The notes beneath the pieces are model-generated. The model had not been told where the DNA came from. It saw only the letters and a program-made list of their open reading frames with translations, and ran no database searches. Below are positions 8,100 through 52,575 of a stretch of 64,000 nucleotides of DNA, in pieces (positions within the stretch are counted from its first letter, which is position 1; each line of letters opens with the position of its first letter). The position numbers and the translations under genes are program-made. Source of the stretch: Dysidea avara (taxonomy: Eukaryota); contig NC_089278.1 of assembly GCF_963678975.1 (NCBI RefSeq), positions 6,672,531 through 6,736,530 on the forward strand. Direction: 5' to 3'.

Positions 8100-8135
<36 letters not shown>

Positions 8136-11247: not shown

Positions 11248-11290
<43 letters not shown>

Positions 11291-11466
11291 ACACACACAC
11301 ACATACACACACACACACCATAATACCAATGGTGTGTTAATTATTTGTCCAATCATAAGTCTTAGCTATATTATTAATGATGACATCATCAGGTATCTTC
11401 ATTGGATGAGGAATTAAGTCAAGCTAGACAATTGATCAGACAGTTACAAGCAGAGAAGCAGACATA
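8709..11466 (+). CDS. N-myristoylated coiled-coil protein of unknown family, 6 exons.
   Basis: The N-terminus reads MGSAPSKK, an N-myristoylation consensus (Gly2 and Ser6). The exons are as follows. (1) 8709-8930, ending ...EANDK with a gtacgt donor. (2) 9870-9958, LQLMTAERDALFDQLKNIQQ. (3) 10762-10820, VVKKLQDDVIKLQNDMVVM. (4) 10876-10991, QQRHKQKLKKLRASSAESRTESALAVFALKDQNVKLSEENTSLLG. (5) 11049-11200, ERVRKLQDENDSLSRHASASS...LILDLSQQ. (6) 11388-11466, VSSLDEELSQARQLIRQLQAEKQT*. All junctions are GT/AG. The heptad-rich sequence suggests coiled coil. Confidence 0.55.
11215..11318. repeat. Compound (CT)n(CA)n microsatellite.
   Basis: Direct read, inside an intron of the coiled-coil gene. Confidence 0.95.
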
Positions 11467-14063: not shown

Positions 14064-15881
<1,818 letters not shown>

Positions 15882-16929
15882 ACTACACTCTCCTCAACAG
15901 TTACTGTATAATACCAATTTGAAACTACAGTGGAGGTTTTATGGTGGGTAGGGCCCCAGCTATACTGACAAGGATAAACAACATTTATTATGATATCATT
16001 GGCTGGAAAGACACCTCTTTAAATACCACAAACAAACAATGAAAGCACGTGGGTTGCCTAATTAAACAAACATCACATGCATAGAATAAAGTTTATTAAG
16101 TCATTACATAAACAAAACATAAACACAATGAAGTTCTCCAGTGATCAGTTATACCAGGTGAGTCTTTGCATGTGGTCTTTCTTCCTTCTGGCTGGTCTAA
16201 CAAACCCCATGAATTGAAGCTGTGCCACTGCAGAGTAAAACCGTTCACTGCAACTTGTCAAGGTCAGTCACAGCAAAGGAGAGGAGAATGTAGAATAGTA
16301 AGGATACTGTAGTGACTCATCATCCATTTCACTACTATCAGAAGACATGACAGAGATAAATGCCTACAAGAAATATATAAGAATTGCACTTAACGTTAGA
16401 CAATAACCTTCATCCAGTCATGAGTGTTAATCAGTTTGCCTGTACATTCCAAGTGCAGTAAGTACACTATGGACACATCGGGCATGTTACGGTCAATGCT
16501 GCTCTCCTCACTATTAACATCACCTGCAGACTATACGCATGCTAGACATACCACTTAATGTGCTGCTGCTGCTGCTGCTAACTTACTGGTAGATATATTG
16601 AAGGGTTAGAGAGAGTTCTGTGTATGGTACTGCTGATCACTGGGTTGAGATGCTACACAAGTATGACAATATTTATAGCCACAGATAGTGGAACTTGTCT
16701 TCTTTAGCAGCCACCCATCCATTTTAAAGACCAAATTAAAATTATCCGAGTGAGAAATTTGTACAGTATTCCACCTGTAAAAAGCAGCCACCTGCCTATT
16801 AAGGCCATGGCCTACAGGTGGTTCCCTTGTACCACTAAATTGCTACTTGAAAATTAAATTTGATAAATCTTACCCTTCTTAGCCATGATGACTGGTTAAA
16901 GTAAAATATTTCATGTAGTGGGAATGTAC

Positions 16930-18615
16930 CAATGTGACGTAAATGTTTCCTATAAAATTCACACCATTTATTATGTCATGATTATAGTTGACTAACTGAA
17001 ACACATCCAGCAAATAATCTACAAGCCTTCTCCTAATGTCTTCAAATACCGTTGGGTGAGTTTTCTAGAGAGTAATATGATGTAACTATTATTGTTCCAT
17101 AAATTACTTCATTACCTTTTTTGGTCCTTTATTAGATCTATGCACAATTTGTTTATCTACACACAGACACTTAACAACACAAGATAAACAGGTAATCTGA
17201 CTGTACCATTATCTGTGATAAAAGAAATTGATGCCAACTCTTGAATGAAATCTTCTAATGTTTTAGCTATTTCCGTTAACCGTGGACTACAACAAAACAT
17301 GATGAAGTACTAGGTCAAAATGGTACATCTATACTAGCTAGCTAGTGGTCATGTTTTGTAATTTTATTCTCATAAACATGGCTAAGTGTATACGTACAAA
17401 ATATTCAAACACCAGTATATCATAAATGCTAAGCGGGGAGTCTACTATAACTCCAGTAGCTACACTAACTTTGAAGTTTGCTTCAACAGTTTTATACATT
17501 CATTGACACCTTCCTCCAGTTGCTGTCTTGCTAACAGCCTAACACAACAGCAATCAGTGAACGTGATTGTGAATATGACTTACTTCACAAATTTCCATGC
17601 CGAGTCAAAGTGATCACTTTCGGTGATGTTGCCCAACAGACTTTGGTAGTAAAATTCATAAATCTAAAGTCACACACAATATCAGACAGTATTCAACAAG
17701 AGAAATGCTAACCTGACAACCTAATGGTGCACCTGGTAGCTTATGTGTCAATATGTGAAGGCAACGCAGCATAACAGTCAAGTGCTGATGGTAGTGGATT
17801 ATGTCAGTTAAGGAGCTCACTACAACTGACTGCAAATGTGAACATGTAGCTACTGTGAGAGGCTATTGGTTACTGCTACTAACTTTTAACTTAAAATCAT
17901 CCTTAAGAAGATCAAGTTGTTTAACAGGATCATGAAGAGACTCCACGTACCTAGTTTAAATACTCACAATGTACGTACAATGGTAGTCATAGTTACCTTT
18001 GAAAGGAGGGTACTGATCTCACCATTTCAAACTGAACATGACTCATTGTACTAACCATTTGTGATAAGGAGCAGTTGACGTCACACAAGAAACTCAAAGG
18101 TTGCCACATGAAATGTTCCATCACTGCAAACTACACAGTGGTAAGTTAGTTAATACAGACTAGTTTACACTTACCTGCAGACCCTTCTTAACTTCAGTGA
18201 TGGAAAAATTGAGGTAGAGAAAGTGATCAATTAAGTAATGCAGTGCCTTATCCTTTAGCCTAAATCGTAATGGAGAGTTTATCAGTACCTACAGAGGGAC
18301 ATGAAGCTGTGCTACTTGACAACACCAGCACACCTTGCTGATCACAGCATCCAACATAGTGGCTGATGGCTGCACCTTAAAGTGTTCTATATTGAGGGCA
18401 GATAAAGAGGACATAGCGAGTGTGCGGTGAAGTGAAGTAGCAGCTGAAGTGGCCAGTCCCAGAATCAGTACTAATGGCAGATTACAAAGATGAGGCCTGC
18501 AAGTAGATATATATGACGTTGTAATATAGCTAAATGTGGTATAGTGGTCTAGCAATGATATACTATACTGTGCAGGAAAAAGTACTAACACAACTATTGT
18601 ATCTATCAAATCCAA
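16930..18615 (-). CDS. Putative multi-exon gene of unknown function; the exon models are tentative.
   Basis: Minus-strand reading gives candidate exons with acceptable splice sites. (1) LKDKALHYLIDHFLYLNFSITEVKKGLQ followed by a gtaagt donor (about 18170-18262). (2) IYEFYYQSLLGNITESDHFDSAWKFVK followed by a gtaagt donor (about 17560-17640), preceded by a tttag acceptor. (3) PRLTEIAKTLEDFIQELASISFITDNGT (about 17180-17290). There is no recognisable family, and the frame and phase between exons are not resolved. Confidence 0.2.
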
Positions 18616-31973: not shown

Positions 31974-34900
31974 ATGAGTGGGCAGCGCAAGGAGAACCCG
32001 TTACTGAAGAGTTCGTATTCCGCAAGAATAGACACGAAGAGTAGTTTACTGACTACCAGTACAACTATTGTCAGCAAGAAACCTAAAACTAATGCAGAAC
32101 TGACAACGCACGTGACCGAAGACAGCAAACGCCTGGTAGGGTTTTCGTCTCAGTTATCAGATAAACCGAAGGCAATTAGCACTCCATCCGTCAAGCTCGT
32201 TGGAACAGCCCCTAAGCTTTCTGACAAGTATGTACTCAGTACGAAATTGATCCGGAAGCCTGTCGAGTCGAGCACACGTGAACTGACGACAGGTCCCAAG
32301 AGCGAAGTAACCACCAAACCAGCCCAGCCAAGCAAGTTGAAGACCACACAGCTACAAACCAAGTCTCTGGTGCTATCAGCATCAAAGTCTGGCCTGTTGA
32401 CCTCAAGGAAATTAACCACTTCATCCTTGCTGACGTCGTCCAAGGTACCTCTGTCCAGTCATGCAGCCAGCGTAGGTGGTAGCAGCAGCTTTTTGAGCAG
32501 TTCCCATGCTATTTCGTCAACTAGAACCAGTGTGAAGCCTAGTCCACTGAAGAGTCAACCACTAACCAGCAAAACCTCACAGTTATCTGTTAAGTCAAGT
32601 GTGCAGAGATCTCGACTGGGAGCTTTAAAGGATGACATTGATGGCTCTGCAGCAGTAGCCCCTCATTATGACCTGAAACTGGAGACAGCCAGGAGTAACG
32701 AGGAAGATGACACTGCAACATTCTTGCCACCAGAGCTGGACCCTTCCATCCTGGATCAAGCCACACCCACTATTAATGTTCTACAGGTAAGGTTATCATG
32801 GCGTACTGTTTGTGTAGTAACTGATATATTGTAGGTGAAGTACAACTTGGTTAATTGTGTGGCTGCATCACTGCTAAAACAGCCTGATTTTCAGGACTCC
32901 AAAAATGCTGCTCGGGTTCTGCTACATGAACTGGCCAGTAATGTTGCTAAGTTTGATCCAGAGTTTGTTGTGAAGGTTGCACTGTACACAAGATGTGATC
33001 TGAACATACGAACCACTGCAAATTTTCTACTTGCACTTGCTGCAAACCAACAAGGTTGTCGTCCTTTCATCAAGAAGTACTACGCAGCAGCTATTCGTCT
33101 GCCATCTGATTGGATAGAAGTTGCTGAGATATACACAAGTTTTCATGATCAAAATCTCAACTTTGGTTCACTGCCAACATCGCTTCGTAAAGTTATGATT
33201 GACAAATTTACTGCATTTGATCGGTATCAGCTAGCCAAGTACAATAAAGATGCTAAGAAGTTTAACAAAGGAAAGCAGAGTACACAAGGAAAGCAGAGTA
33301 CACAGGCTAAGCAGCAGAAAGACAAGAAGGAGAAAGATGACACAGACTCAGACAGTTCTATAGTTAGTGATGATAAGAGTGAGACTGAAGAAGAGCTGGA
33401 ACGTAAGAGTTTTACCCTCAAGCAGTTGATAAGAAAACTGCACATCTTTGAACCAGCGGAGGCTGTTATGGGTCTGATTGGTAAGAAATATCCTGAGGAT
33501 AGGGAAGCATTTCGACGTAGCAAACTCCAGGGTGTGTGGGACCAAGACAGAGCAGGAAAGAGAATGAAACTACCTACCCCAGAGACGTGGGAAACTCAAG
33601 TGTCGTCAAAAGGAAACAAGGCGTCTACTTGGGAGGAATTAATTGATCACAGAAAGCTTCCATTTATGGCAATGCTACGTAATTTGCGTAACTTAATTTT
33701 AGCTGGAGTTTCAGAGAAACATCACAAGTGGGCACTGAAGAAGTTGACTGATGAGGGAGCAGTTATCTATAGTAAGCAGTTTCCATTTCGTTTTTTTTCT
33801 GCTTATGAGGTACTGAACGAGCTGGAAAAGGCCAAAAAAGAGGGAGTGGGAGGACAAACACAGAAGGGCAGACAGCAGAAGAAAATGAGCAAAAGTGCTC
33901 TAGAGAAATATCAAAAAAAGATAGCCAGTTTAGATGTCACTCTTCTTGGCAGATACCGCAAGGCACTGGATACTGCCCTGAAGATTTCTACCTGTTACAA
34001 CGTCAAGCCGATAGCTGGATCAACCCTAATAATCTGTTACCTTGACACAAGCACTAATGCCCCATGCACATCTGCCAGGGGACTAGGAAAACCACGCACT
34101 ATCCGGGAGGTGATTGTCTTGCTGGCTCTCATGTGCAAGTATGCTTGTGAACACTCCGTACTACTGTTGTGTGGACCAAAGGGGCACCCTGTAGAGGTGG
34201 AACTTGAGGATGGCACTATTCTACAAAACATGGAGAGGATTCTACAGCAACCAGTGGCTACACCTACAGTTGTTACGACAGACAAGAATCTCCCAATGAG
34301 TCATCTTCGTCAATTGATTTATTCACAGACACATGTGGATAGTTTAATTCTACTGCAAGGCTCTGGAAATGATGCCAATTCAAAGGCTGAAAAGGACATG
34401 ATGAAATTCCTCCAGAATTACCGGCGCTTTGTTAATCCTGATCTGTTGTATGTTGACGTTGATGTTAGTGGTAGTAGTCAAGCTGACCCTGCCAGCCCTC
34501 AGTCTGCACGGCACCGTAATGATGTACACTTGTCGGGCTTTAGTGACAACATCCTTCGCTTCATAGCTGAACGTGGTGGTACTGGACAAATGACATATAT
34601 TGAGAATATTGATAAGGCATACAGTCTCAGAGAAGTGAAGGGCATTGGTCTTGCTTCCACCGCTGACATTGTACCATCACTGAGTCCAGAGAAGGCTCTC
34701 CTTACAGCAGGCCAGCCAAAGATATGGCGAACAGTACGTGTGTTTATCTCCTCCACTTTCAGAGACATGCATGGTGAACGAGACCTCCTGACTAGATTTG
34801 TGTTTCCTGAGCTGCGGGCACGTGCTCACTCCAGGTGTATTCAGATATATGAGGCTGATCTGCGTTGGGGTGTTACTGAGGAAGATGCTCGAAGTGCTCG

Positions 34901-37900
34901 TGCACTGGAGATATGTCTGGGGGAGATCAGTCGGTCTCACTACTTCATTGGAATGTTGGGCCAGCGATATGGTTGGGTGCAGGATGAGTACATGGTGCCA
35001 GATCTTGTGGAGTATGACTGGATCAGAGAGTACCCAAACCGTCGGTCCATCACTGAACTTGAGATGTACCATGCTGCACTAGCTGATCCTGACAAGGCCA
35101 TGAACAAGGCTTTCTTCTTTTTTCGAGACAAAGCATTTCTGTCAGAAGTACCAGAGGAGCACATTGGGTCTTTTGTCAGTTCCACATATGAAGATGAGTG
35201 CAAGATTGAAGCACTGAAGAGTAATATACGTGAGAGTGGCTTGGAGGTGTATGACAAGTATCCAGCACGATGGTTTGGAGTTGCTGAGGGTAAACCAATG
35301 GCAGGTGGTCTGGAAGACTTTGGCTATCGTGTACTGAATGTTTTATGGAACAGAATCCAGAAGGATTTCCCACTAGATGACCCCAATAGAGATGTGATGG
35401 TTGAAGCCAACAATTTACATATGGCCACTATGGAGTCTTTGTCTGAGACATTTGTTGGGCGTCGAGAACTCTTGCAGCAAGCAATGACTGTCCTGCGGTC
35501 TAATAAGCATCGGGCATTAGTTGGCTGTGGTAAATCGGGTTCTGGTAAGTCTGCATTCATGGCTGCACTGGCACAGATGTATATTGAATCACTGACTGTT
35601 AAGATGACTGATCTTATTATTCCTCACTTTATCGGTGCCGCTCCTGACTCTGGAAACATTTCAGCAATCCTAACACGACTATGTCATGAAATGAAACGAC
35701 GCTTTAAAATCAAACTAGATGTGCCAGATAATTATGCAGACCTTGTTTTGGACTGGCCAGAATTTCTCTCAGCAAGTTCTACCAATGTTGGTCCCAGCAC
35801 TCAAATAGTTATTCTCATTGATGGGCTAGACCTGCTAGAGAACAAACATGGAGCCTTGTCCATGGAATGGCTACCAAGTGAAGCAGACATTCCAAGTAAT
35901 ATTGTGATCATGCTCAGTTGTCGGGAAGGACAAGTAGCTCACTCAGTTCTGATGAAACGTCAACCTGTTCCACACCAGATCACTATTGGTGCTTTGAATG
36001 TGTATGACAAGGCAGAAATGGTGCGACGGTCACTTTCTAAGCATAGGAAAACTCTTGATGAGTCACCATTTGGTAACCAAATGAAATTGCTGCTTAGCAA
36101 GAAGGAAGCTACTAATCCTTTGTACTTGTATTTGGCTTGTGAGGAATTGAGAATGTTTGGTGTGTTTGAAGAAGTTACTATGAGAATTAAAAGTATGTCC
36201 CCAACTATTACTGGGCTACTGCAGGAGATTTTAGGACGACTGGAAGGGGAACATGGAGCTGAACTGGTTACAGCTGCTATGTCGTTCATAGCCATTGCCA
36301 GAGATGGACTACAGGAGGGAGAACTGTCAGCATTGCTTGCCATGTATCAGGTTGCACCTCAACTTGGATCAGTGATCACTCCAGGAGCACAGTACAAACT
36401 ACCACCTGTAATGATTGCTCGTCTCTTCAGAAGTATTCAGAACTACCTGCAACAGAGCAACCAAGAAAAGTCGGACTTGTTGATGTTTTCTCACCAGGAT
36501 GTTCAGAAAGCTGTACTTACAAGATACGTGAAGGGTACAAACAGTGATTTAGAGAAGCAATTACACAACTTGCTGGTGGCTTATTTCAAGTCAGAAGCTG
36601 ATCCCAGAAATAATGGCTCTTTCACTGGGAAGAACCCAAGGGCATTTGCAGAGCTGCCACATCACATGTATATGGGAGGAATGTGGAAGGAGCTTGAAGT
36701 GATGCTGACTAACATCAATTTTGTTGTATCCAAATGCCGTGTTGGATTGGCTCATCGACTAATTGAGGATTACACTCCACCACTCACTCAACTATCTGCT
36801 GCAAGAACCAGAGAGGTCAAGAAATTCATACAGCTGCCAAAAGTACAAGAGTTTCGATCTTTTGTTTCACGTAATCTTCACATCTTATCCCTCAATCCTT
36901 CATTGGCTCTACAGCAAGCTGTCAATGAGCCTTCATCGTCTTTACTGTCTCTTGAAGCCACCAAGACATTGTCTAGCAGTAGTCATTCCCAACCACTGGT
37001 CTACTGGCAGAACAAGCCAGCTACCTACTCACCTTGTCAACTTACCGTAACTGGTAGCCTACAAACCATCAATTGTGTGGCTATCTCACTGGACCAGGAA
37101 ACAATTGCTTGTGGATCACGTGACTGTACGGTGAAGCTCTACAACATTCAAACCGGACGTGAAACTGGCACCTTTGTTGGCCATGCTGGTCCTATCATGG
37201 GAGTATGCTTTGTGGGTAGCATGCAACTGTGTTCAGCATCACAAGATGGACGACTCAGTCTGTGGGACATCAGGGGGGGTCATCGTATTGAAGTAATGTC
37301 TGGGCACTCTCGTGCAGTGCAACATTGTGCAGCTAGTCAAAATGGCAAGTTGGTAGTATCTGTCTCTCTGGACTGCTCCATCAAAGTTTGGAAAGGAAAT
37401 GATGGTAAACTACAAGCTACATTGCGCACTCAAGGATTCAACAACAAGCCTCTCAACTGTGTTGCTTTTCACCCAGAAGGACAGCTTATTGCTGTGGGTG
37501 GCTGGGACAGTTGTGTAAAGATTTGGGACACATTTAACCAGAAAAGACTCAAGATACTTAGAGGACATCGAACATCAGTACAGACATGTTCATATGCTCA
37601 ATCTGGTCGATACATAGCATCAGCATCACTAGATGGCGAGGTGCGTCTGTGGGCAACCAAGTCTGGTGCCACTGTGGGTACACTGATGGGTCATGCTTCA
37701 TCAGTCACTTGCCTGGCATTCAGTGGAGATGGAGGACTACTGGTAACTGGTTCCAATGACCAAACATTGAAGATGTGGTCCAGTACATTAGGAACACCCA
37801 TTAAGGTGAATCCAGTCAGTGAGGATGGGCCAGTACTGTGTTTGGCTGGACATGCAGGAAGACAGCAGGTTCTGGCGGGTCACCGATCTGGTGCAGTACG

Positions 37901-39941
37901 AGTGCTAGAAGTGAAAACAAGGAAGATGGCCACAGAAACTCCACATGGGTCAATACCTATAACTACTACTTGCTGGGGGCCGAGCAATAATGGCTATTGT
38001 CTGACTGGTGCAGCTGATGGCAGCTTGAAGGTGTGGAAGCCAAACACAAAGAAATATGCTATCCTGAGTGACCACTCTGGTCCGGTGCGATGTAGTGTAT
38101 GGATTCCTACTGTTCTTGCTAGTGGCTCTGAAGATATGACTATAAATATTTGGCCCAGTGCTAGTACCTACTATGACAAGATGAAGAAATCCACTGATCC
38201 TTTGACTGTACAGCCCATCATGACGTTACATGGTCACACTGGTCCAGTTAATGCTCTCGCAATCAACTGTAGTGCTACCTACCTTGCCTCAGCCAGTGTG
38301 GATAGGTCTGTGATTCTGTGGGACACGGTTTCATACAAGAAGCTACACATGTTTGATGCCTGCCATAAGGATTGGATTAATACCTGCACTTTCTCTGATA
38401 ACAATCCTGACCTGTTGGTTACTGGTTCCAATGACTTCACTCTCAAGTTGTGGGATGTTAGTGCTAAAGTGGAGAAGACGACTCTAACAGGACACAGTGC
38501 AGCAGTGACACAGTCCATCTTCCAACAAGGCTGCGTAGTGTCTGCTAGCAGTGATGGTTTGGTGAAGGTGTGGACACACAAAGGAGTGGAGATAACTACT
38601 ATGAGATGTCACAAGCAGAGGGTAAGTGGCTGTGTGCTGTTCCTACCACAAAGAGGTGACACTTCTAGTTGGGCAGACATTGTGGATGAGAAAGAGGAGG
38701 AAGAAGAAACAGCTAAAAAAAGACAAGCGTTTGAATTGAAAGATGCTATCATAGTTACTGGAAGTGATGATGGCTTGATTGGGTTTTGGAGGCCATTTGT
38801 AGCCCACCAGCTGCTGTCATTGAGTGGTCATGCAGATCAGGTGAAAACCCTGGCACTGACTAAAGACAACCACATTGTATCCGCATCTGCTGACAAAACT
38901 ATCAAAGTGTGGAGCCCACCAGTCGAAGAGAGCACACTAACTGAAGCACATCCAGTGACTACCTCCAACCACAGTGGCCCAGTAGTTGACATGAGCATCA
39001 CTTCTGATGGACAACATGTAGCGAGTGTTGGTAGAGATGGGGTGCTGAAAATTTGGGGCAACGTAAGTGATGAAGACACAGCATCGATCACATTTGCAGT
39101 GATCCATGAAGTGATTGTGGGGGAGCAGTCAGAGCCACTAGGAGCCGTGTGTTTCACTGATGACAACACTGTTGCTGTAGCATGTTATGACTGTACTCTT
39201 ACCTTATGGCGTTTCAGCGAAGAGGAGCCATTGAGTAAACTGCGCAAACTGGACATTCAAGAGAAGTGTCCCATCATTAGCCTGAAGCTCAGCATGGAGA
39301 ATAAGTGCTTAGTGGCTGGTTCAGTGTCTGGTATAGTGACAACCGTCCTTCTTGCCACTCAGAGAGAGTTGCACAACAGGAGCTTGCACACTGACTATAT
39401 GAGTGATGCCATTGGCTTCACTAGTGGAAAACTGGCGACTATTGGTCTGGACAACAAGTTAATATTCTGTCAGCCCGATCAGGGACGAGGGATGAAAAGT
39501 GTTGAGATATTTGAAGGTGCCCAAGAGAAAAAAGACCGTTGGCCCACTGTACTCACTGCTATTGGTGGACTACTATTTGTGGCTGACTCTCTGGGATCTG
39601 TGTCCATCAGAAAAGTGAGCAGATATCATGAAGAGAAGGAACCATCATCAAGCTACCGAACTGAAAGTGGAAGGCTGTTACTAGAGAAGAAACTACATGC
39701 CAAGGGTATCACAGCCATTACCACCTTCAGCAGTGAGTTGTTGTTAACTGGTTCTAAAGACTGCTCTATCAAAGTGTGGAAAGTGCTCAACCCCATCCAC
39801 AAAGTGGAACTCAAACAAGTTGGCCAGTTCCATTGCTCATCACCAGTGACCACATTGACAGCCGTTGTTACTTCATCTGGAACACAAATGATCGTGGCTG
39901 GAGATGTCCTTGGACACATCTATCATTTACACTGGAACTAA
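31974..39941 (+). CDS. TEP1: TEP1-like giant protein (telomerase/vault-associated protein 1 architecture). It has an S/T-rich N-terminus, then TROVE, DUF4062, NACHT and many WD40 repeats. Two exons: 31974-32786 and 32835-39941.
   Basis: The two supplied ORFs 31944-32834 and 32835-39941 are in the same frame, separated by one TAG inside a 48-nt GTAAGG...TTGTAG intron (32787-32834). TROVE: NCVAASLLKQPDFQDSKNAARVLLHELASNVAKFDPEFVVKVALYTRCDLNIRTTANFLLALAA (about 32835-34300). DUF4062: VRVFISSTFRDMHGERDLLTRFVFPELRARA (about 34720-35160). NACHT: Walker A VGCGKSGSGKSAFMAAL and Walker B IVILIDGLDLLE (about 35450-36400). WD40 repeats from about 37000 to the end (LWD, VWK and IWD dipeptides recurring about 20 times). 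Confidence 0.85.
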
Positions 39942-40829
39942 ATTAATATAGGTACTAAACAATTAGTTAATAAAGTTGAGTGAAATTTGAAATATATATT
40001 TTATTATGATTATTTATTTATTGTAATTGCATACCTTAAAGACACTATCAGGTCTTCCATCACATTTGCAGGGAATGCATCAAAGTCCTCTACCACCAAC
40101 ACCACTGGCTTATGGTCATGCTTCTCTAGCCTAGGCCTCTTGCTGCTGGCTGAGTCATCTTTCCTTTCATCATGTGCAGTAGTTGCCTGTAGTGAACCTT
40201 TACCTCATAGTGATAACATGTTTATTGTATACCGTTGTTCTCTCTATATGCCAACCAATCAGAATGGACATGGTCAATCTGTGAAGTCTTTTCTGCTGGC
40301 TACTGCTAGACTGTTGATAGGCGTCAATCTGTGATAGAATATTACAGGAGGGTTGGTATAAGTCATGATGGGTATTTCCTGTCGAAGTGGTCAAGATTTT
40401 GCAGTGGCTCATATTAACACCAACTGTTGGTGTCAATATGAGCCAGCTATAGCTATTGACACCTTCTTCACTGCAGCTAACACCCTTCTTGATTTGCACA
40501 CTTTATACAGTTGAAAAAAAAGGGAAGGGTGGGTAGCTGGCAGTGGTAGCTCAATGATAATGAACCTGGTGGTCCTGGGTTGCATTATACATTTTAATGT
40601 ATTTTTTTTTTGTCCAAGTTGGTGTCAATAGTCCTGGCCTAAAATTTTTACTCAGGTGACTCTGCATTAGACAATATAGATTTCTTCTTTGGTGACCTAG
40701 GGAGGAGACCGAACCATTGGTGAATGGTGATAGGATATCTGCATCATGCACCATTTAATTACAAGGGTAATAATAGTAATTCACAATCCATTAAGCACCT
40801 AGTATTCCTTCAAATTCTTAGTATCTACC

Positions 40830-41809
40830 TCATTTGGTGTCCATCCATCCATCAACTGAAGGTGAACTTCCTTCACAATAGCATTCATTCCTACACATAA
40901 ACAAAAACATCAATACATGATGGTGTATAGCTCCATCACCTGAGGCACAGTCATGTGATCTCAGTGACACGATATGAGGCGTCACATCAGCCCCTAGTCT
41001 GGCCCGTAAGTGATGATGGAGCACCTCGTGATCAGGAAGGCTTACACCTGTATAACATACATACCATTTACTATAGAGTATGAAACTTAAAACCATTAAT
41101 AGTACAGGCTAGTATACTCCTCGATTATGATTATTATTATTACTGAGCAGTCAGCCCTGCTGGTGTGCTCAGATTTGTCCAACACAATCCCTGCACCTGA
41201 GTAAGGAGAATTTACTATCTACAATACTGTACCAGCATTGATAGTTGCAGTGGGGATGAAGGTAAGTTGAGGTGGGACAATAGCAGCTGAACAGTGACCA
41301 GATGTAATTGCTATGCTGTTCCATTGTTCTTCTGCTGCACAGACAAAACGAATCACTTGCCCTAGAAGTGTGTCATACTGTTCCTGCAGCAATTCCTGCG
41401 TGAGATGTGAACTGGTGCACTTGTGATCACTAAGGAACTCCCTTACATCTATACACTGCTTTATATGAGCCCACGTGTTGGTGTATGCCTGGTGTCTTAT
41501 TTGGGTGTCTTCTCTGCACTCCCCAGCCAGTGGGTCAAACACGTCAGCTGTCAAGGCAAAAGGTGGGTGCAGTTATAACATGTACATTTCATGATCATGG
41601 TATTGGAGCCTTACAGTCTTGGGAAAATCTCGATGGGGTGCCAGTTTCCGCGGGAAAATACAAACAGCTCTGAAATAAATGGTGCTGTCATAGCTAACTT
41701 CAATCGTATTGCTAATGTACACATTAATATTGTGCAGAAATAAACATCGAACCTGTGTTGAAGACACAGCGATGCTTTCCTCCTGACCATCCTCCGTGCT
41801 TACAGCCAT
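40830..41809 (-). CDS. Small gene of unknown function (3-4 exons), divergent from PMS1 and convergent with the TEP1-like gene.
   Basis: Exon 1 reads MAVSTEDGQEESIAVSSTQ (about 41755-41809). Exon 2 reads ADVFDPLAGECREDTQIRHQAYTNTWAHIKQCIDVREFLSDHKCTSSHLTQELLQEQYDTLLGQVIRFVCAAEEQWNSIAITSGHCSAAIVPP... (41219-41554). A further exon reads GVSLPDHEVLHHHLRARLGADVTPHIVSLRSHDCASGDGAIHHH... (40830-41040). No family was recognised. Confidence 0.35.
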
Positions 41810-41881
41810 TCGTCACTCCATAACTTTTACTTGTGGTATTTTATTTTTATGCTCCAAATAATGAACACCGATCTATAGCTA
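41810..41881. promoter_or_regulatory. Putative bidirectional promoter of about 70 bp, between the unknown gene (minus) and PMS1 (plus).
   Basis: The two start codons are 72 bp apart. The spacer is AT-rich (tttattttta). Confidence 0.35.
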
Positions 41882-44800
41882 ATGCAAAAATTAAATAATC
41901 ACACAGTTCGCCTGTTATCAGGTACGCAGGTGATTACTTCTGTGCATTCCGTTGTCAAAGAGTTGGTGGAGAATTCGCTAGATTCTGGAGCTGTTAATGT
42001 AGAAGTGAATTTGGTAGGGCGATACAAAGACGAATTCGTATGGCATATAGTAAAAGCTACTTTTTACAGGAGAACTACGGGTTGGATAAATTAGAAGTTC
42101 GGGATAATGGCTGTGGAATCTCCAAAGACGAAGCTCCGTATATTGCCAAGTGTCACTACACCTCGAAACTTGCAGACATTTCTGAGCTCGATACTTTGCA
42201 GACATTTGGGTTTCGTGGAGAGGCGCTTAGCTCGTTAGCGACTGTGTCTAACCTTAGTATAGCTACAGCTACCCAGCAGGATGAAGTTGGAATGGTGTAC
42301 ACATTTGACACTGCTGGGGATGTCACATCTAAGAGGCCAATTGCTGCTAGTGTAGGTACTTGTGTTACTGCTACAGACTTGTTTGTCAGTTTGCCAGTAA
42401 GAAGACAGTTCTACAAGAACGTAAAGCAGTGTAGAGATGACTTACGAAGAATTGAACATCTCATGATAGCATTTGGTATTGCACACAACAATGTTAGATT
42501 TGTTCTGCGTCACAGCAAGAATGTGGTCTGGCAGAAAGCTGTTATGTCAACTCTACATTCAAACATGATTGCTGTATTTGGAACCAGTCTTGTGCAGCAG
42601 ATGAAATGTCTGCAGAGCAAGAGGGAACATCAGCATAACAAAGATAGTGATGAGAATGGTGACATCCCAGGTGACAGGTGTACAGAGCTGTGTGGGTATT
42701 TCCCTGTGTGTGGAGCTAACACATCAGAGATCACCAGATCCTCTGCTGAGCGTATGTTTGTGTTTGTCAACAAGAGGAGTGTGGAGATTAAACAAGTCAA
42801 TCAGGTAATGTATACTACAGTATTGCTATCATGATGTACCTCATCTTATAGCTTGTTAGAGACATGTTCAAGTTAGCATACCCTAATCAAGGCAGGAGAT
42901 ACCCTGTAATGTGCCTGTTCATTAAAGTACCTCAGAATGAAGTGGATGTCAACCTGGAGCCTGGAAAACATGCTGTTTTATTGCATCACACAGTAAGTGC
43001 TGTGGTATTGACTCTTATTCGATGATGTCTCCTGCTAGAATGAAATTCTGGACCAATTAGCTAACTTGCTTGGTCAATTATACAAGACAGAAGATCCTGA
43101 AGAGGTTCAAGAACTTACACCAGTGTACCGTCAGAATGAGAACCCTACTCTCCCAAGTAACAATGATCTATCACAATTCAGTGAAAATGCTGTACTGTCT
43201 CCTCCAACTACTGATGATGCTGTGCAGTTATCATGCACTGCAGTGTTGACTAGTGATGACCTGCACACCATACCAATTGCCAGTAGAGACACTTCACCAC
43301 TCACTGTGGATGATTGTGTGGAGCCACGAGATGAACAAGTGGATGCTGTGATAGGAGAAGAAACTGAGGAAAGAACTGAGGACACAGTTCTGCTAACGCC
43401 TGAAGACTCTACTACTGCTACTACTGCTACTACATGTAACAAGGAAAGTGAACAAGGTATTTATGAGACAGGTTTTGTTACACATTGACATTAGTGACAT
43501 GTAAGGTAGTGACATATTACACTGGAGCAGGGGTCAGTGTGTGAACAGACAAGAAATGGAAGTAAGCCATTAGTAGATGGTATTTGACACTTATTGTTAT
43601 AACACTAGCCAGTCAGATTGCTGCACAGAGACACTACCAACAAACCTTGCCATGTAAGGAAAATGAGATAGATTCTTTTGGACTAGTTTACTTTTGTTTT
43701 AGACTGTCCAATCAGTGAAGAAACCAGCTACTTCCTTAAAGCTTACCCGTGAAGGTAATATGTTTACCATATTTGCTACACAAATTACTTTGATGTGTTG
43801 TACAGGTAGTAGGGGTACGAAGAGCAGCAGCATTGGCAGCCATAAAATGGTGCTGTGGTGTTATAATACATGTATGGTGTGTGTTATGCTGTTACTTTTC
43901 ATACAGAAGCTATCTAACTTCTTTGCTAAGATTAGCACCAGTCAGCCTAGCAAGCCACCTGAAGTGATGGTAGATTTCTCTCTGGACAGAACAAAGCAAT
44001 GCTGGGAAGAAGGCTCTTACCTTGCCATTCCAGCTAGTGACAAATTAAGAGTGATTGGTCCAATCCACTATCAACATCAGTGGTTGGTCCTCATACGCAA
44101 AGACATCAGCTTGTTTAATGTTAAACAGTAAATGTTTCTACATGAAGTCTCTGCATGTTTGTTATATTTAGTTAACTACAGAGCCAACCAAGACGCACTC
44201 TACAATAGACTACTGGCTTCCTTTAAACTACCAGTAAGCCCTCTACTGACTGTCATATCAATTAATGAACAGTAAGTAGCAAATGGCTTGTCTGTTGTTA
44301 CCATGCAGTGAATTTGAAGTATTTTAATGTGTGTAGTGTTTGTTATAGTATTGGTTTACTATTGTACACTTTGTGATAAACTGGTGTGGCTTGACTGCCA
44401 TTATTGGACTCCCATACAATTATCCAGTAGTGTAGGAGGGATGGATAACATGTCACTTCTGTCTGCTCTTCAGTCTGAGAGCACTGCTGCCAATGGCAAC
44501 AGGTATGTTACCTTGTGTGACTGCTTTGTCACACTGTCTGCTGCTGCCAATAGATTCTACTCTGATGTAAGATTATTAGCTAACGGCTTCGGTATATCTG
44601 AGAGAATCGGTACCAAGTATAGTTTCTTATCTGCAGTTATGTGTATACTTATTGTACAGTTGATGGGAAGCAGTGCATTGAGTTAGTGTCCCTTCATAAG
44701 TCTCTTGGGATAAATGACTTATTAGAAACCCTAGGTAAGTGTGTGTATTAATTGCTGATATATGTATAATGTCATGAATCTCCAGCACTGATAAGAGAGC

Positions 44801-45010
44801 AGACTTTGGAAAAGGAACTTAGTGATGTTACGTTAAGAGAGTGCAGACCATTATCAGTGCAAAGAATCCTTCAGGTAGGCTATGTTTTATGTTAGGAGTT
44901 AGGTACACTTGTTTCATATAGGAAGAATCAGTTCGGATGTCCAACATTCAACTTAGTACCCTACAAACAGCAGATGTGCTAGAACTAATGCAGCATGCTA
45001 ATTCACAATG
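41882..45010 (+). CDS. PMS1: DNA mismatch repair protein PMS1 (MutL family, GHKL ATPase), at least 8 exons. The 3' end is approximate.
   Basis: Exon 1 reads [44 protein letters not shown] (41882-42030). Exon 2 reads [34 protein letters not shown]...[23 protein letters not shown]...[35 protein letters not shown] (42070-42804). A 46-nt intron follows. Then [46 protein letters not shown]. The C-terminal MutL dimerisation region reads [10 protein letters not shown]...[18 protein letters not shown], then ...[14 protein letters not shown], then [12 protein letters not shown].... The whole is collinear with human PMS1. Confidence 0.85.
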
Positions 45011-45338
45011 TTATCATTTAGTACATAAGATTGATGTATGACACAATTGTGGTGAAATTGTAAGGCTGCGAAATCTAACAACTGTCAGGGTCATATCCTA
45101 CGCTTTAAACTATGCGCGGTGCACGTGATCATATTAACAAGCTAGGAGTGGTTTGAAGAAGTGAACTTTTAGTTGTTCCAGTGTTCGCGAATATCTTGTC
45201 GTCTGAGTGTATACGTTTGTCGTGTTGTCCATCTTATGTGTAAGGTGGGAGTCTGCTGGCGTTAAACGGGTACTGATTTAATTTGTTTCGTCATCGTTGT
45301 AGTTTCAAGCCAGTTAAGGAGCTGATGTGAGGATACGA

Positions 45339-46026: not shown

Positions 46027-46097
<71 letters not shown>

Positions 46098-49000
46098 ATG
46101 TTGTATGCAATATGTTAATGGGTTTAGTGTATAGAGTTATTGCAGTGCTTTTGTGCAGTGTCGGGATTTAAGAGACGCCTATTGGACCCCAAAAACACTC
46201 TTCCTCGAAATTTAGAGGTGATCGAGATCACTTGTAAGGTACAGCATTTGTGTTTTTTTTATCACATTAGAGATGAGCATCCACCTTCTGTATTGTGTGT
46301 AGGATTTCAGGCGAATTAGTTTCAGCTTCAAACATTGTCGAAAGAATGAAGCTTACTCGGTAATGCAATTGATACGAATGTATGGTATAGTGTGCATGTG
46401 TGTGTAATGTCCGTGTACCTGTGTGTGTCTGGACAGTTGTATTAATGGATAAGCTAATGCCAACTGACCATGAGCCACACAATGTGTGAGGTTCATGTAA
46501 ACTTCAGTGTGACTATAGCTGAAAGCTTTGCCTTTGCTTTGTGTGTTATATGCAAATGACGTGTGTATTTTCTGTGTGTACCAGTAGCCAAGTATGTTGT
46601 AACTGCCATGGTGCAAGAAATTACTATTTAAATTGTTAATTGACCATGGGTAATAGTTATAATTGCTTATTAACTTGGAGACTAATTGCAAGTGTGTACT
46701 AACACCTTAGCACATGCTGTAGCACAAGTGTCACATATGATTGTGGTTTCTACCCTCATTATATAGATGATGAATGCTGTACTGGTCTACTCCAACTCTC
46801 AGACCACTTCACTCTTTGCGTTTGATTATGTGAAGGAGTTGAGGAAAGATGAGTTGGAACAGTCAACTCTAAGCATAGCATCTGGTGAGTGTGTTTGCGT
46901 GCATGTGTGTGTGGTGTGTGTATGTAGTGTGGTGGTGTGACCAGGTACTAGTACAGTTCTGGAGAAATGTTACATATACCAATTCAATGCTATTGCTATT
47001 GAATATCTGTAGAAAAATTTATTAGTTTGGTGTATTTAAATGTAGTTGTGAGGTTTAATTACTTCATTCAAGTCTTTGAAGAAATGTAAGACTTCTAGAT
47101 GAAGGCCATCTTGCTTATGATTTCATTGTTGTGCATGTTTGCTGTTGTCCAAATATCACTTCTGATCTTTACCATTGCACAGATCATTCTCCTGTGACTT
47201 TTCTTAATGCAAGAGACTGGGAAAAGGTATGGATACATCTAACATTGTCGTTCCCCTTGCTACAGTACCTATATATGTACTAACTGCATGTGAGATGCAT
47301 GCTGAACTCATGTACACATGCATACATGTATGTACATAGATACAGACTGAATGACAAGTTTACATAAAGAAATTTGTATGATTCCAAGAGTTTCATGTTT
47401 GGTCATACATAACTGGCTATCCTATAACAGTAACAAAAGTGCATTCATCTTGAGAATAATATAATATTGTTAGTGCCGATATATGGTTGCTATCGTGATA
47501 CAGTATAGCGTTTCACTCGATGATCATACTTGCTAGTCTGCTGTTATTCTTGTTATTATTAGGAGTTACAGCGGTTAGGCTGGTCCCCTGGCTCTTGGAG
47601 AGTGTGTGAGATTAATCGGACGTTTACGTTTAGTGACAGGTACCCTGTTCATGTGTGTATATTTGATGTAGTATTTCTTTGTTTATTTACAGTTTGCCGC
47701 CATATTTTGTTGTGCCTGAGTCAGTTGCTGATCAGGCTCTGTACCATGTTGCCCGTCTGCACCATGGCAACAGGCTGCCAGTATGTTCACATGATCTATA
47801 ATATCATGTATTCATTGGTATATCATTGTTACAGGTGTGGTGTTGGTCTCACCCTGAACATGGTACTTCTATACTGAGGTGTTCATCTCCAACTATTAGT
47901 GAATCAGATAAGCCTTCTGATATGAAGTACGTGTATGTTGGTGTATTGTCAATAAACCTCTCTATATGAGTTTGTATACTCCTCTGATGGGTTTGCAAAC
48001 TTGTTATTGTACTACTAATATGTGAAGTGTGTCCCTCTGTAAACTTAGTCCCACTGGCACAGTACATATTAGAGAACTAGGTGACTTTTGTGTGTGTGTG
48101 TGTGTGTGTGTGGTTTGTACTGTTTTGTGTTCTGGTCTTTAGTTACATCTGGGCAGCATCTCATGGTCGCACTATGAAGCCATTTGATCTATCAACAAAG
48201 TGTTGTACTGTCAAAGATGTCACTGTATCCTTTACTAAGCTGCGGGAACTGTGCATGCCAGGTAATTGGAATATCATATCTGTTCATTTATAATGCTCTA
48301 TGTTAACTGGATAGTGTCAGAACATGATATAAAGAATGCAGAGAGGCGTTGGCTGTCACTTCTGAACTCTTCTCGTTGGATGGAGCTAGTTAGGTGAGTG
48401 TGTACTGATCAACGAGACAACAACAATTACATTATGTTACCACACAATAGTTGAAATAGTTATGTATTCATTGATTTTAGATAAGTTTACCTGTTGCTTC
48501 TATTGTGCTGTCTGTAGTTATGTGTAGTGCCATAGTGTTCGAATCTTGTTATGACTGGTTGATTTTACAACACACTCCATGCTGTGTGATTCAAACAAAA
48601 GACACAAATGTATGTGACTGTCTCAGCAAAAGCCTGCCTAGTTCACTTTTTTTTTCGGTATCTCTAGTGTCCAATGGAATGGATAACCAAAGTTTCGGGT
48701 GAGATACTGCTAGACATGCACAGTAGGAAGAGGAAGGAAATCTATTTGTAAGCAGGTGCTTACAATCGCAGCCATTACTTCCGTTTACATTAGTCTACAG
48801 CAGACTTAAAATGTTTCTGCCATGGATTGGCAAATCAATCAAGGTATAGTTTTAGCACTGTAGTCACTTATGCATTTACTTATGAAGGCAGTTTTATTGA
48901 AGAATCATGACAACAGTCTTGTTTACATCTGCCACATCGTAAGCTTTTTTGACATGCACACCATTGGTGGTACAGAAACAAAACTAACATTTTCGACTCT

Positions 49001-52000
49001 CCATGAGCTGGTGAATAAGATGGTGTATAGTTCAAATCGATTTGTCTGAGATTAAAACTTGCATTTTTTGTTTGTAGCATGCGTAATTTTATGATTTTTA
49101 AAAATAATTTGGTTTTTCTCTAAATGTTGTGCAAACTAGGTGGATTTTTCAAAACCTGACTTGTTTGCACAAGCATGTGTATTGAGAAAAACAAAAGTTC
49201 ATAAAATTACGTATGCTACAAAGAAAAATACGCAAGTTTTTATCGGGCCAGTATGTGAAGAAGGAAAGCTCAATTGATTAAAACTATATACCATCTTATT
49301 CGCTTGCTCCTGGAAAGTTCAAAAATCTTTGTTTCGTTTCTGTAGCTCCAATGGTATATGTGTCACAAGCGTTTGTTTACAATGTGGTAAACGTAAACAA
49401 GATCGTCATCATTTCTTCTACCTAACCGCCTTCATATCCACATGCGCAAGTGACTACAGGGCTAACACTATACCTTGGCTGATGTGCTAATCCACGATGA
49501 ACATTTTAAGCCAAATTGCAACGTTGTAGACTAATCCAAACAGAGGTTTGGCTGTGAATGGTAAGCGTCTGTAGTTTATTTTCAGTGTAGTCGCTGTACA
49601 AATTGATTATCTTGCTCTTCCTATTCTGTCTGGCGCTATAATTCCAAAACTGCTCATCATAGAAGGCTGAAACTTTGGTGATCCATTCCTTAGACACTGC
49701 AGATAATGCTGAGAAAATTTTTAAAAAAAATCTGAAATTGTGCAAACGAGTTGGGTTTTTGCTGAGATGGTCACATACTGTATGTGTTGTGTATGTTACA
49801 CGCACAGAGAAGCTTCTATAGCATGACTGTGTGCATGTGTGTTTGTAATGTATTATCATTCTTCTACAATCATTTACTCTACAGGTCTTGCCTCCAAATA
49901 GCTGTTGAAGCACAGAAGGTACTCTGTGAGGCTTGTTCTGTGTTACTCATTGGTAAGTGCAACACTTGTTGTAAACATTGTTAGCTGGTTGTCATGTTAA
50001 GTGATATGGCAGGTTGGAGTGTCAACAGACCAACTATGTAAATAGTGTATTTATCATCTGCTATAACTTGTGGGTAATAGCCACAAGAATGTAACACCCT
50101 TAAACCTTCCTTTTACACCTGATGATATACCATTGTGTGGTGATGGGGTTGTAGAGAAGCCTTCTAAGCGATTAACAAATTTCGCTACTTTTACAAGCAG
50201 CAGCTGCCAACAATTTGCCTATTAGAAGTTTACTACTTCCTGTGAAAGTTGTTGGAGGGTTCATATTTTAAACTTATAAGGTATGAGTGGGGCCCTATAG
50301 TAGTTGCCATAAATAAGGCATAGATGAAATTGATAGTTGGCAAATATTGTTAACTGTTAGCACTTAATTTTGTATGTATGTTGTAATGCTTTTTGTCTAA
50401 TTTACAAGATTGAATAAGCAAAAATTTAAATACAGTTAGGTTTCACTATTAGTATCACTGGTGTCCTTGAATAACTAATGACCATATGAATTTAAAATTC
50501 CTTGAATTTTATTGGTCATAATGCATTACTTAGTACATAATGAGAAGTTGTAAACCTTGTAATTTTATGTGTGTCTTTTCACTACCTTAACAACTACATG
50601 AGCGAGACTTCATAGATGTATCATAATTGGTTGTTCCTTAGGTTTAAATGAGATGTGGTATTAGCAAAATGTTTTTGTACCAGTTATGTACTGTCTGCCT
50701 ACATTTTTGCATATTTGACGATGTTTGTAGTATATGGGCTGTCAAAAGTTTTGTCCTTAGCTATATAATAGTTTAGTAGGAAAAATTGTACTGTAACATG
50801 ACTGGAATCAACTCTGTACAAATCAGTTGATTGTAACTCACAACACTACACTGTATGGAGTCATGCTTTTTAAAGTGATCATGGATTTTTACTAGGCACT
50901 CTCCAGTATTAACAAATTACACTATTCCTTATATCAGACCCTACGGCTCAAGTACGTATTAAGGGGTTAATCTGTAAAGCCTTTTAGGTAGAGATGCAAA
51001 GAAAGATATTTTTTGCTTTTCACGAATGAGCAAATGTTTTACATACATTTTATTGTTTGAACTGGAGTGGATTAATTAGCACTTAAAAAAAAGTATGCTA
51101 ATGTTGGAAAAATAGAAACATGTCAAGTTTTCACATATCTGGGGCACATATTGGTGTGTGTGTGTGTCGGTGTAGTGTGTTGCGTATGTAACAAGTTCAT
51201 TGTGTCATTACAGAGGCAGATGGGAGGGACATTAGTTGTGTGGTCAGCTCGCTAGTACAGCTCATGTGTGATCCACACTGTCGGAGCATCATCGGATTTG
51301 AAATGTTGATCCAAAAAGAGTGGGTTGCCATGGGGCATCCATTTTGCAGCCGTAACAAACTGACCAGTTCGTTTAAAGGTGACGATGAAACTGATACAAG
51401 CCAAGTGAGATAGTTGCTATATCTGCTACACAATTATTTATTGCTTGCTGTAGGCACCAGTGTTTCTTCTGTTTCTGGATTGTGTTTGGCAACTCACTGA
51501 GCAGTTCCCATCAGCTTTTGCGTTTTCTAGTGTTTACTTGAAGGAGTTGCACATTTGCAGTCTATCAAATTTGTATGGGACATTTGTGTTTGATAGTTGC
51601 CGAGATATGTACAATGTGGTAAATGGGGTGCAGCCGGGTGGCAAGAAGGCCATACAAAAACCATTAACCATTGAAGAGTGTGCTGCCTATATGGAGAGCG
51701 CGTGGGGAAAGTGGACTGACCAGCTAAGCAGTTTTGATGATAAGGAAGACGTTCTCAACCCGTTGTATTATTTATTCAGTTCGCAGGCTAAAGAGGAACC
51801 TCATAATACTGCCAGCCCTCTACCAATTGACTATGGATTTGTATCAGTTGTTGTAGATGACGAAGCAGTGGATGAGTTTCTAGGAGGACTTGTGGGACTG
51901 TACGACACACCTGGGCAAGAAGCTTCTGTCAAGAAAAATCATCAATCTTCTGTGGAATTAGTTCCTAACACTTGTGCAGCCTGTATTAAGTTCTGGTCAC

Positions 52001-52575
52001 AATTGTTCTTGTCTGGTTTTCCAGACTTAAGTGAACCAGATGGTCATAAGCTACATGTCCAGAGACATCAGAGTATGCTTGTTTGTCAGATCAGAAAACA
52101 AAGAGACAAACTACACATGAGTGAGCTAGCCAATGGATCATTTGCTTTTGATCTTATCAACCACGAAGTAAGCCATCACTCGTTCGGGAGTCAATCTGGA
52201 GGGAGCAGCGATTTCTCTCCCATGCCGTCACCCCTACCCACACCTATCACACATAGTAATGGAGACATTGCTGGGTCACCTCTGTCTACTCATCTAACCA
52301 ATGGTATCATTTCCAGGAGAGACACTTACCATGGCGATGAGACAACTGTTAGTCACAGTCCACTGACACGCTCATTAACATCCACTCCACAAGGTAGCCG
52401 AATTGTTCGAGGAAAAGTGACCATTAAAAGAGAAAGAGACAGTAAGAAAAAACAAGACAGACACATGTACACAGCATCAGATAGTCCACCCATTATCACA
52501 ACTAAGGACACAACAAGAATTAGAACACACACTCCTGTACACTACACTAATGGCACAGAAAGTCACTACCTGTAA
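45339..52575 (+). CDS. Myotubularin-related pseudophosphatase (MTMR10/11/12-like), with an inactive catalytic loop. More than 14 exons; the last exon is long (51460-52575).
   Basis: Exon 1 reads MAAIKGEDFLG followed by a gtaaag donor. GRAM/PH exons read GELRVCHVSDVRMLLPTKSSNPVTLAVGHLICSNFRLKFIP and EVIEITCKDFRRISFSFKHCRKNEAYS. The phosphatase-domain exons are as follows. (1) FAFDYVKELRKDELEQSTLSIASG (46760-46890). (2) DHSPVTFLNARDWEK. (3) VWCWSHPEHGTSILRCSSP (47827-47935). (4) MKPFDLSTKCCTVKDVTVSFTKLRELCMPG. (5) SCLQIAVEAQKVLCEACSVLLIG (49860-49950). (6) AEADGRDISCVVSSLVQLMCDPHCRSIIGFEMLIQKEWVAMGHPF (51220-51410). (7) PVFLLFLDCVWQLTEQFPSAFAFSSVYLKEL (51460 onward). In place of the CSDGWDRT active-site loop the sequence has EADGRDIS, so the catalytic Cys and Arg are both lost. 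Confidence 0.8.
46030..46093. repeat. (GT)n microsatellite, in an MTMR intron.
   Basis: Direct read. A shorter (GT)9 run lies at 48095-48112. Confidence 0.95.
49054..49240. mobile_element. MITE-like element with about 45-bp terminal inverted repeats, in an MTMR intron.
   Basis: The sequence AAAACTTGCATTTTTTGTTTGTAGCATGCGTAATTTTATGA (about 49054) pairs with TCATAAAATTACGTATGCTACAAAGAAAAATACGCAAGTTTT (about 49198-49240). Confidence 0.4.

Follow-up and report, generated by a model that had tools for sequence, protein, structure and literature searches.

The TEP1 gene of the demosponge Dysidea avara raises the question of how a large gene that is divided into many exons in other animals came to be encoded almost in one piece. 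The gene was found in a stretch of 64,000 nucleotides (nt) of contig NC_089278.1 (positions 6,672,531 to 6,736,530, forward strand; NCBI RefSeq assembly GCF_963678975.1). This whole stretch is referred to as the window, and positions are counted from its first letter. The TEP1 coding sequence of 7.9 kb carries a single 48-nt intron and lies antisense within an intron of ORC3. The gene is probably an orphan retrogene, that is, a reverse-transcribed copy that replaced its parent gene.

Identity and gene structure

The locus is the demosponge orthologue of TEP1 (telomerase protein component 1, or vault protein p240), which forms part of vault and telomerase ribonucleoproteins, and it has the canonical domain order known from amoebae to humans. 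A homologue search using amino acids (aa) 272-1640 as query gave TEP1 throughout the matches listed, confirming the orthology proposed in the initial annotation. Open reading frames (ORFs) of metagenome-type assemblies were 95%, 82% and 53-56% identical to the window protein. The TEP1 of Geodia barretti (CAI7998411.1, in the cluster of P0012) showed 54% identity, mollusc, annelid, priapulid and amphioxus TEP1 41-49%, a cluster with the TEP1-like protein of Clytia hemisphaerica 36%, and vertebrate "telomerase protein component 1" 33-35% (E about 1e-220). In the neighbour-joining tree, the sponge TEP1 sequences were monophyletic (100% bootstrap) and separated into two sister clades (100% each). 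Clade A contained the window gene and its 95%- and 82%-identical relatives (the latter is locus L001) and is intron-bearing, while clade B contained Geodia barretti (GCA_030341885.1, locus L004), loci L002 and L010 and others, and is intron-free.

The gene structure was read from the genomic sequence. Two neighbouring open frames of one phase, 31944-32834 and 32835-39941 in the ORF list of the window, give after splicing a predicted product of 2,639 aa (813 + 7,107 nt). The first ATG is located at 31974, with an in-frame stop 20 codons upstream, and the only in-frame stop inside the intron is a TAG made at its acceptor. Exon 2 is 6.3 times as long as the next-longest open frame of the 64-kb window. 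The single-intron model of the initial annotation was exact in its coordinates.

Comparison with other demosponges supported the 48-nt intron as genuine, because the spliced product is colinear with unbroken ORFs and L001 has an intron at the identical site and phase. Exon 1 of L001 (MSGRQKNPLL...) ends with CAG at the homologous codon and is followed by a 128-nt GT..AG intron, whose sequence is unrelated to that of the window, and by an exon 2 starting with GTAAAG. In the clade B sponges the ORF crosses the intron site uninterrupted, and their "...FLPPELDAAVQAPPAPIVDTVGLKTTLINAVATSLL" pairs residue by residue with the spliced "...FLPPELDPSILDQATPTINVLQ|VKYNLVNCVAASLL" of the window. Window exon 1 is likewise colinear with the unbroken N-termini of the sponge orthologues P0141, P0145, P0163 and P0164.

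Further in-frame introns hidden in the TEP1 ORF were not indicated by these alignments. Synonymous sites are saturated between these species; therefore, an unspliced in-frame intron could not have stayed open in all of them. Only two insertions, of 4 and 15 aa, were specific to the window when compared with the other sponge clade, and neither had usable splice sites. A hidden 45-nt intron at 39609-39653 was rejected, as the GT..AG pairs there span only 24 or 38 nt and are too short or out of frame.

Nesting in ORC3 and age of the intron loss

The host exons flanking TEP1 belong to one ORC3 transcript, as indicated by profile positions, splice sites and the annotated Geodia ORC3 model, which spans TEP1. 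Pfam searches of the minus-strand frames of the window placed ORC3_N positions 165-223 at 40013-40204, downstream of TEP1, and positions 215-328 just below 18,500, together with ORC3_ins and ORC_WH_C, upstream of it. The splice sites of the host intron read ...TCT TTA AG|GTATGC (40035/40034) and TTGCAG|G CCT CAT (18497/18496). At least 17 short coding blocks of ORC3 are present in the window, and a pseudo-protein made of them matched bird, shark and coral ORC3. Since ORC3 is weakly conserved, the search for its homologues yielded just five matches. The 93 nt between the TEP1 stop and the ORC3 donor are AT-rich, with an AATAAA in between.

The same antisense nesting was found in four other demosponge loci (L001, L002, L004 and L010), where the host intron is about 8.6-9.3 kb long and nearly filled by TEP1. 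Flank ORFs of relatives matched the minus strand of the window at 16,148-18,525 and 40,031-41,560. The ORC3 gene of the coral Pocillopora meandrina (24 exons) contains a gene-free intron of 155 nt at the identical aligned codon, also in phase 2, with the borders ...ATT TGC AG|GTATAAG...TTTACAG|T CAA. The TEP1 neighbours in Capitella, Clytia and Pelomyxa are unrelated to those in the window. The host intron of ORC3 is therefore ancestral, and TEP1 entered it within the sponge lineage.

Exon numbers were obtained by mapping annotated proteins exactly onto their own loci. TEP1 has 49 exons in the annelid Capitella teleta, 47 in both the mollusc Patella vulgata and the cnidarian Clytia hemisphaerica, 43 in the priapulid Priapulus caudatus, and 24 (23 introns) in the amoebozoan Pelomyxa schiedti. 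The intron-rich orthologues measured were 11-65 kb long. In contrast to the 42-48 introns of the other animals, TEP1 had zero or one intron in every demosponge sampled, most of them lacking even the 48-nt intron, and more than 15 sponge assemblies contained it as an unbroken ORF (2,278-2,831 aa). The contrast between a nearly single-exon gene and intron-rich orthologues drawn in the initial annotation was thus borne out. The intron poverty is a property of all sampled demosponges and not of this genome alone. Because both demosponge clades share the intron poverty, the loss of about 45 TEP1 introns is derived, older than the split of clades A and B, and lineage-wide.

Two annotated mini-introns in the Geodia TEP1 (160 + 47 nt; L004 10393-10617, aa ~1464-1471) were rejected, since they bridge a frameshift with two in-frame stops. 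The sister ORF P0012 is unbroken at this site, and the mini-introns probably stem from an error in the assembly or from an artefact of annotation. A gene model with two artificial introns patching a frameshift is a caution for gene predictors.

Some of the intron-rich TEP1 genes host other genes in their introns. A cytochrome P450 gene lies in that of Clytia (L009 14846-18008, minus strand) and a gene for a 469-aa protein in that of Priapulus (L007 10265-15491, minus strand).

The host intron of the window is about 13 kb longer than in the relatives (18,497-31,970, especially 22,800-27,400, plus strand), and L001 has nothing that corresponds to the added sequence. Decayed ORFs occur in the 22,800-27,400 insert, and single ORFs gave only sub-threshold matches to RVT_1 (E 0.028) and RNase H-like RVT_3 (E 0.034); a Pfam search on the concatenated frames of the insert gave no match. 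These traces suggest an old retroelement insertion. In clade B, a single-ORF gene of 558-787 aa with zf-TRAF and MATH domains lies between ORC3 exons directly downstream of TEP1, and no counterpart was found in the window between 40,204 and 40,830. The ORC3 introns may have captured two intron-poor immune-type genes.

Origin of the nearly intronless TEP1

Judged from sequence comparison, the gene is functional and kept under purifying selection. Between the window and L001, the proportion of nonsynonymous differences (pN) was 0.148 and that of synonymous differences (pS) 0.72 (saturated). The TeTIR domain (DUF4062) was 94% identical between the two, while exon 1 was 52% identical, with a pN of 0.32 below its pS of 0.75.

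Acquisition by horizontal transfer, or contamination, from an intron-poor protist or symbiont would also produce a gene with few introns. Many unbroken, amoebozoan-like homologues of ~2,300 aa exist on ~7-kb contigs, and their identity of 38-40% comes close to the 41-49% of bilaterians. However, several assemblies show TEP1 amid intron-rich sponge ORC3 exons, on long contigs that reach 882 kb. Its GC content (0.45) and third-position GC content (GC3, 0.42) equal those of the neighbouring coding exons, which argues for a resident gene and not a contaminant. In the tree rooted on Pelomyxa, sponge TEP1 grouped with animals; the FLPPE[LI]D motif is shared with Capitella and not with Pelomyxa, and the amoebozoan gene examined is itself divided into 24 exons. 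On the basis of context, composition and phylogeny, contamination and horizontal transfer were rejected as extremely improbable.

The initial annotation had mentioned a retrogene-like origin, and this is the best explanation, newly supported by the antisense site in the ancestral ORC3 intron. In the demosponge stem lineage, a TEP1 copy without almost all of the ~45 ancestral introns would have inserted antisense into the existing ORC3 intron. This copy, most likely a reverse-transcribed messenger RNA (mRNA), would have become the sole TEP1 and would have been retained there under purifying selection. A retrogene is favored because the ancestral introns are gone, the gene occupies a new site in an intron of another gene, and it is antisense with its own poly(A) signal. 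Together with long purifying selection, these features are those of orphan processed retrogenes and nested intronic genes. Surviving intronic insertions are biased to the antisense orientation. We infer a complementary DNA (cDNA) intermediate and the loss of the parent gene; no second type of sponge TEP1 was found among the 120 matches listed in the homologue search.

Several points weigh against a retrogene. Unlike typical retrocopies, TEP1 has a very long coding sequence (~8 kb) and no known parent copy. No A-run was found in the 93 nt past the stop and no target-site duplication was visible, though no explicit duplication search was run; at such an age these remnants are expected to have decayed, leaving no direct signature of reverse transcription. 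Unlike processed retrogenes, one clade has an intron near an ancestral position. The clade A intron is located 6 nt (2 codons) upstream of a phase-0 intron common to Clytia and Capitella, and this proximity is easier to reconcile with partial retention of introns than with a template that had been processed completely. Moreover, intron gain and intron loss are equally parsimonious because the intron-bearing and intron-free clades are sisters.

The position of this intron also bears on a different history, in which an intron-rich TEP1 came to lie in the ORC3 intron through a move at the DNA level, or through a rearrangement of ORC3, and then lost its introns stepwise by repeated recombination with 3'-primed partial cDNAs. 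The 48-nt intron would then be the 5'-most survivor, typically spared by 3'-primed loss, and would have been lost again in the sister clade. It is indeed the sole remaining intron, it stands at the 5' end of the coding region, and it is 2 codons away from the intron of Clytia and Capitella; in Clytia, too, the first coding exon is long (249 aa) and ends at that junction. However, the positions are not identical. The 2-codon offset is ungapped and robust, and the proposal that the window intron is the Capitella/Clytia intron was rejected. The proximity carries little weight, since the chance of falling within 6 nt of one of ~48 ancestral introns is roughly 8-10%. This history also takes three steps, namely the move of a gene of at least 11 kb into what is a 155-nt intron in the coral, ~45 losses, and one more loss in the sister clade. 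A move at the DNA level followed by stepwise intron loss appears unlikely.

Two origins are possible for the 48-nt intron of clade A. It may have been gained later at a CAG|GT site, or it may descend from the first TROVE-proximal intron of the ancestral gene and have shifted. In the second case, the template may have been only partly spliced, or cDNA recombination biased to the 3' end may have left the intron in place, before it shifted. Exon 2 of both intron-bearing species starts with the hexamer GTRAAG (Val-Lys), which is donor-like and ends in AG (window 32835-32840; L001 9986-9991), and the intron begins with GTAAGG or GTAATT (window 32787-32792; L001 9858-9863). Speculatively, the GTRAAG hexamer could permit compensating 6-nt shifts of donor and acceptor, so that the intron would have slid from the Clytia/Capitella position.

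The retrogene origin can be put in a fuller form. An ~8-kb mRNA-derived TEP1, among the longest functional retrogenes, would have replaced a parent of at least 45 exons in the demosponge ancestor and been held antisense in ORC3, and the 48-/128-nt intron would be a de novo gain at a CAG|GT protosplice site. This combination is possible, and we put it forward tentatively. If the de novo gain is true, it would be a datable, clade-restricted intron gain in sponges and would provide a natural pair of intron-free and intron-bearing genes that are otherwise equivalent.

Selection for an intron-free gene might also account for the structure, either for fast, splicing-independent expression of an NLR-like sensor that depletes NAD+ or because antisense nesting forbids introns. 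The single-exon state has been kept across two deep sponge clades with saturated synonymous sites, and in clade B the next ORC3 intron holds the second single-ORF gene of immune type, which is TRAF-like. However, clade A tolerates an intron varying from 48 to 128 nt, active TEP1 orthologues of other animals have 43-49 exons, and low rates of intron gain suffice for the persistence of the intron-poor state. We consider such selection very improbable.

What is new at this locus is the antisense nesting of TEP1 in one ancestral ORC3 intron; our literature searches found no report of a near-intronless TEP1 nested in ORC3. The locus offers a clear natural example of a very long, essential-looking gene that has lost nearly all of its introns (~45), and a plausible mechanism can be named. 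With the ancestral ORC3 intron as a fixed landmark, the event can be dated to a time before two deep demosponge clades separated. The arrangement could be used as a marker of demosponge relationships and for testing whether an intron was gained or retained.

Protein domains, known systems and neighbouring genes

The protein is canonical and already understood, and the gene structure is unusual but explicable, being historical rather than functional. TROVE, DUF4062, NACHT and about 20 WD40 repeats had been named in the initial annotation, and the profile searches recovered them (Table 1). The NACHT match was slightly below its cut-off, but both Walker motifs occur, A as GKSGSGKS at aa 1170 and B as VILIDGLD at aa 1263, and precomputed PF05729 (NACHT) is listed for close orthologues. 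In an AlphaFold2 model the C-terminal 1,019 aa (mean predicted local distance difference test score, pLDDT, 83.6) were nearly all beta, with ~85 strands corresponding to ~21 blades. The combination of domains had been pointed out in the initial annotation. It is the usual TEP1 layout and no special one, and vertebrate, Amphimedon queenslandica and Geodia barretti TEP1 share the order of TROVE, DUF5920, DUF4062, NACHT, winged helix with helical domain, and ~21 WD40 blades.

The N-terminal 271 aa contain 31% Ser+Thr, in agreement with the Ser/Thr-rich extension of ~270 aa described previously. The further claim that this extension replaces the N-terminal TEP1 repeats did not hold. A Pfam scan of the 271 aa gave no match, TEP1_N (PF05386) included, and TEP1_N was seen only in mammalian matches among those listed in the homologue search. 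Therefore, TEP1_N marks mammalian TEP1 and not the whole family, and its absence here is unremarkable. Other sponges likewise carry the Ser/Thr-rich N-terminus.

The DUF4062 region matched the solved domain of human TEP1 (11gz_A, E 4e-62). All 11 residues tested in human TEP1, by mutagenesis or as structural residues in the published work, are kept, namely F908, S911, R914, R920, R948, W949, G950, R960, C965, R982 and E1014, which correspond in order to human F902, S905, R908, R914, R942, W943, G944, R954, C959, R976 and E1008. E1014 is predicted to be catalytic, and residues 948-950 form the RWG loop.

TEP1 and its DUF4062 NAD+ hydrolase (NADase), a sponge orthologue included, were described in 2026. 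Four preprints of that year reported a TEP1 domain order identical to that of the window protein and identified DUF4062 (NIR/TeTIR) as a TIR-like NADase domain. The NADase activity of human TEP1 depends on E1008, and Avs and other antiphage systems use the same domain as an effector. NADase activity was shown for the TeTIR domains of human, mouse, zebrafish, Amphimedon queenslandica (in vitro) and Dictyostelium. In a Halichondria study, TEP1 was reported to be transcribed and regulated. For the window TEP1, biochemical activity and partners can be proposed by homology. As in human and Amphimedon TEP1, the TROVE-vWA module would bind a small structured RNA and the NACHT-WD40 part would control oligomerisation or assembly, and the TeTIR domain would hydrolyse NAD+ within vault-type particles. 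At gathering thresholds, Rfam gave no RNA family anywhere in the window; thus, there is no vault-RNA or Y-RNA-like neighbour in the window.

The connection of DUF4062-NACHT with prokaryotic defence made in the initial annotation is correct and already published. Prokaryotic DUF4062/NIR defence proteins (Avs with NIR effector, Swarozyc, Vulcan, Vesta, Evangelion) also combine an N-terminal TIR-like NADase effector with a following STAND NTPase and repeats, and the eukaryotic TeTIR-NACHT proteins NWD1, NWD2, TTC41 and NPHP3 have the same layout. The logic shared by the two groups is NAD+ hydrolysis switched on by oligomerisation. Unlike either group, sponge TEP1 has the TROVE-vWA RNA-binding extension that defines TEP1, and it follows vertical animal inheritance. 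PADLOC 2.0.0 (2023 models) found nothing significant in the DUF4062-NACHT part, with only a sub-threshold Avs2 match (E 0.0025, 13.9 bits). The relation to prokaryotic antiphage systems is therefore at the domain level only. APAF1 is similar in its NACHT/NB-ARC-type NTPase, its APAF1_C helical domain and its C-terminal WD40 propellers acting as sensor. However, TEP1 has an NADase effector where APAF1 has a CARD, three propellers where APAF1 has two, and an additional RNA-binding N-terminal module.

Table 1. Features of TEP1 and its ORC3 surroundings; nucleotide positions refer to the window unless a locus is named, and Pfam cut-offs are given in brackets after the scores.
Feature	Position (nt)	Strand	Position (aa)	Score (cut-off), bits	Remarks
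TEP1 coding exon 1	31974..32786	+			813 nt, 271 codons; Ser/Thr-rich N-terminus, ends with conserved FLPPELD motif; from ORF and start context
Sole TEP1 intron	32787..32834	+			48 nt, phase 0; CAG|GTAAGG...CTGAT...TTGTAG|GTGAAG
TEP1 coding exon 2	32835..39941	+			7,107 nt = 2,368 codons + stop
TROVE (PF05731)	32835..34019	+	272-666	334.5 (23)	RNA-binding module
DUF5920 (PF19334)	34104..34637	+	~695-872	40.8 (27)	vWA-like partner of TROVE
DUF4062 (PF13271)	34725..35366	+	902-1115	59.3 (24.7)	TeTIR/NIR TIR-like NADase domain; Pfam match aa ~906-1015
NACHT P-loop NTPase, then NWD1-type winged helix and APAF1-like helical domain	35529..36941	+			Pfam and motifs
NACHT		+	~1170-1340	25.1 (26.7)	
HTH_NWD1		+	~1389-1507	31.4 (27)	
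APAF1_C		+	~1512-1640	27.0 (22.8)	
WD40 blades	36999..39938	+		302 (27)	~21 blades, consistent with three propellers
Beta-prop_TEP1_2nd		+	within 1994-2209	274.9 (89)	
Beta-prop_TEP1_C		+	within 2559-2638	160 (32)	
AATAAA, likely TEP1 poly(A) signal	39969..39974	+			28 nt past stop, 60 nt before ORC3 splice donor; motif match only
ORC3 coding exon 5' of host intron	40035..40156	-			ends ...PVVLVVEDFDAFPANVMEDLIVSL
ORC3 host intron of antisense TEP1	18497..40034	-			21,538 nt, phase 2; splice sites read from sequence
ORC3 coding exon 3' of host intron	18331..18496	-			begins PHLCNLPLVLILGLATSA...
TRAF-like single-ORF gene	L002 18103-20466; L004 ~14538-16658; L010 17163-18839	-			zf-TRAF and MATH domains

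The neighbouring genes had been described as all cut into many exons. ORC3, Miro, a MutL-like gene and a myotubularin-related gene are multi-exonic as stated, but "every neighbour" was slightly overstated, as the longest open frames after TEP1 exon 2 are of 373, 279 and 278 aa. Miro (EF_assoc_1/2) is located at 1-4,100 (+). The MutL-family mismatch-repair gene at 41,875-45,030 (+) has HATPase_c_3 and DNA_mis_repair domains and one exon of 246 aa, and the last exon of the myotubularin-related gene at 46,700-52,572 (+) encodes 373 aa. The gene order ORC3/TEP1, MutL-like and myotubularin-related is common to L001 and partly to Geodia.

Two pairs of tandem-duplicate multi-exon genes were found on the minus strand, at 4,166-5,178 and 6,326-8,325 and at 11,673-12,701 and 14,067-15,278. 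One pair shares the frames "...HLSSIFNWF.DF..." and "CIVCASISCPNV", and the other pair shares "YIPKIIDKDDFNYHV...GGS.DKRISKGDG". Long (CA)n/(TG)n microsatellites are located at ~11,250-11,400, ~14,750-14,940 and ~46,050-46,110, in intronic or intergenic sequence.

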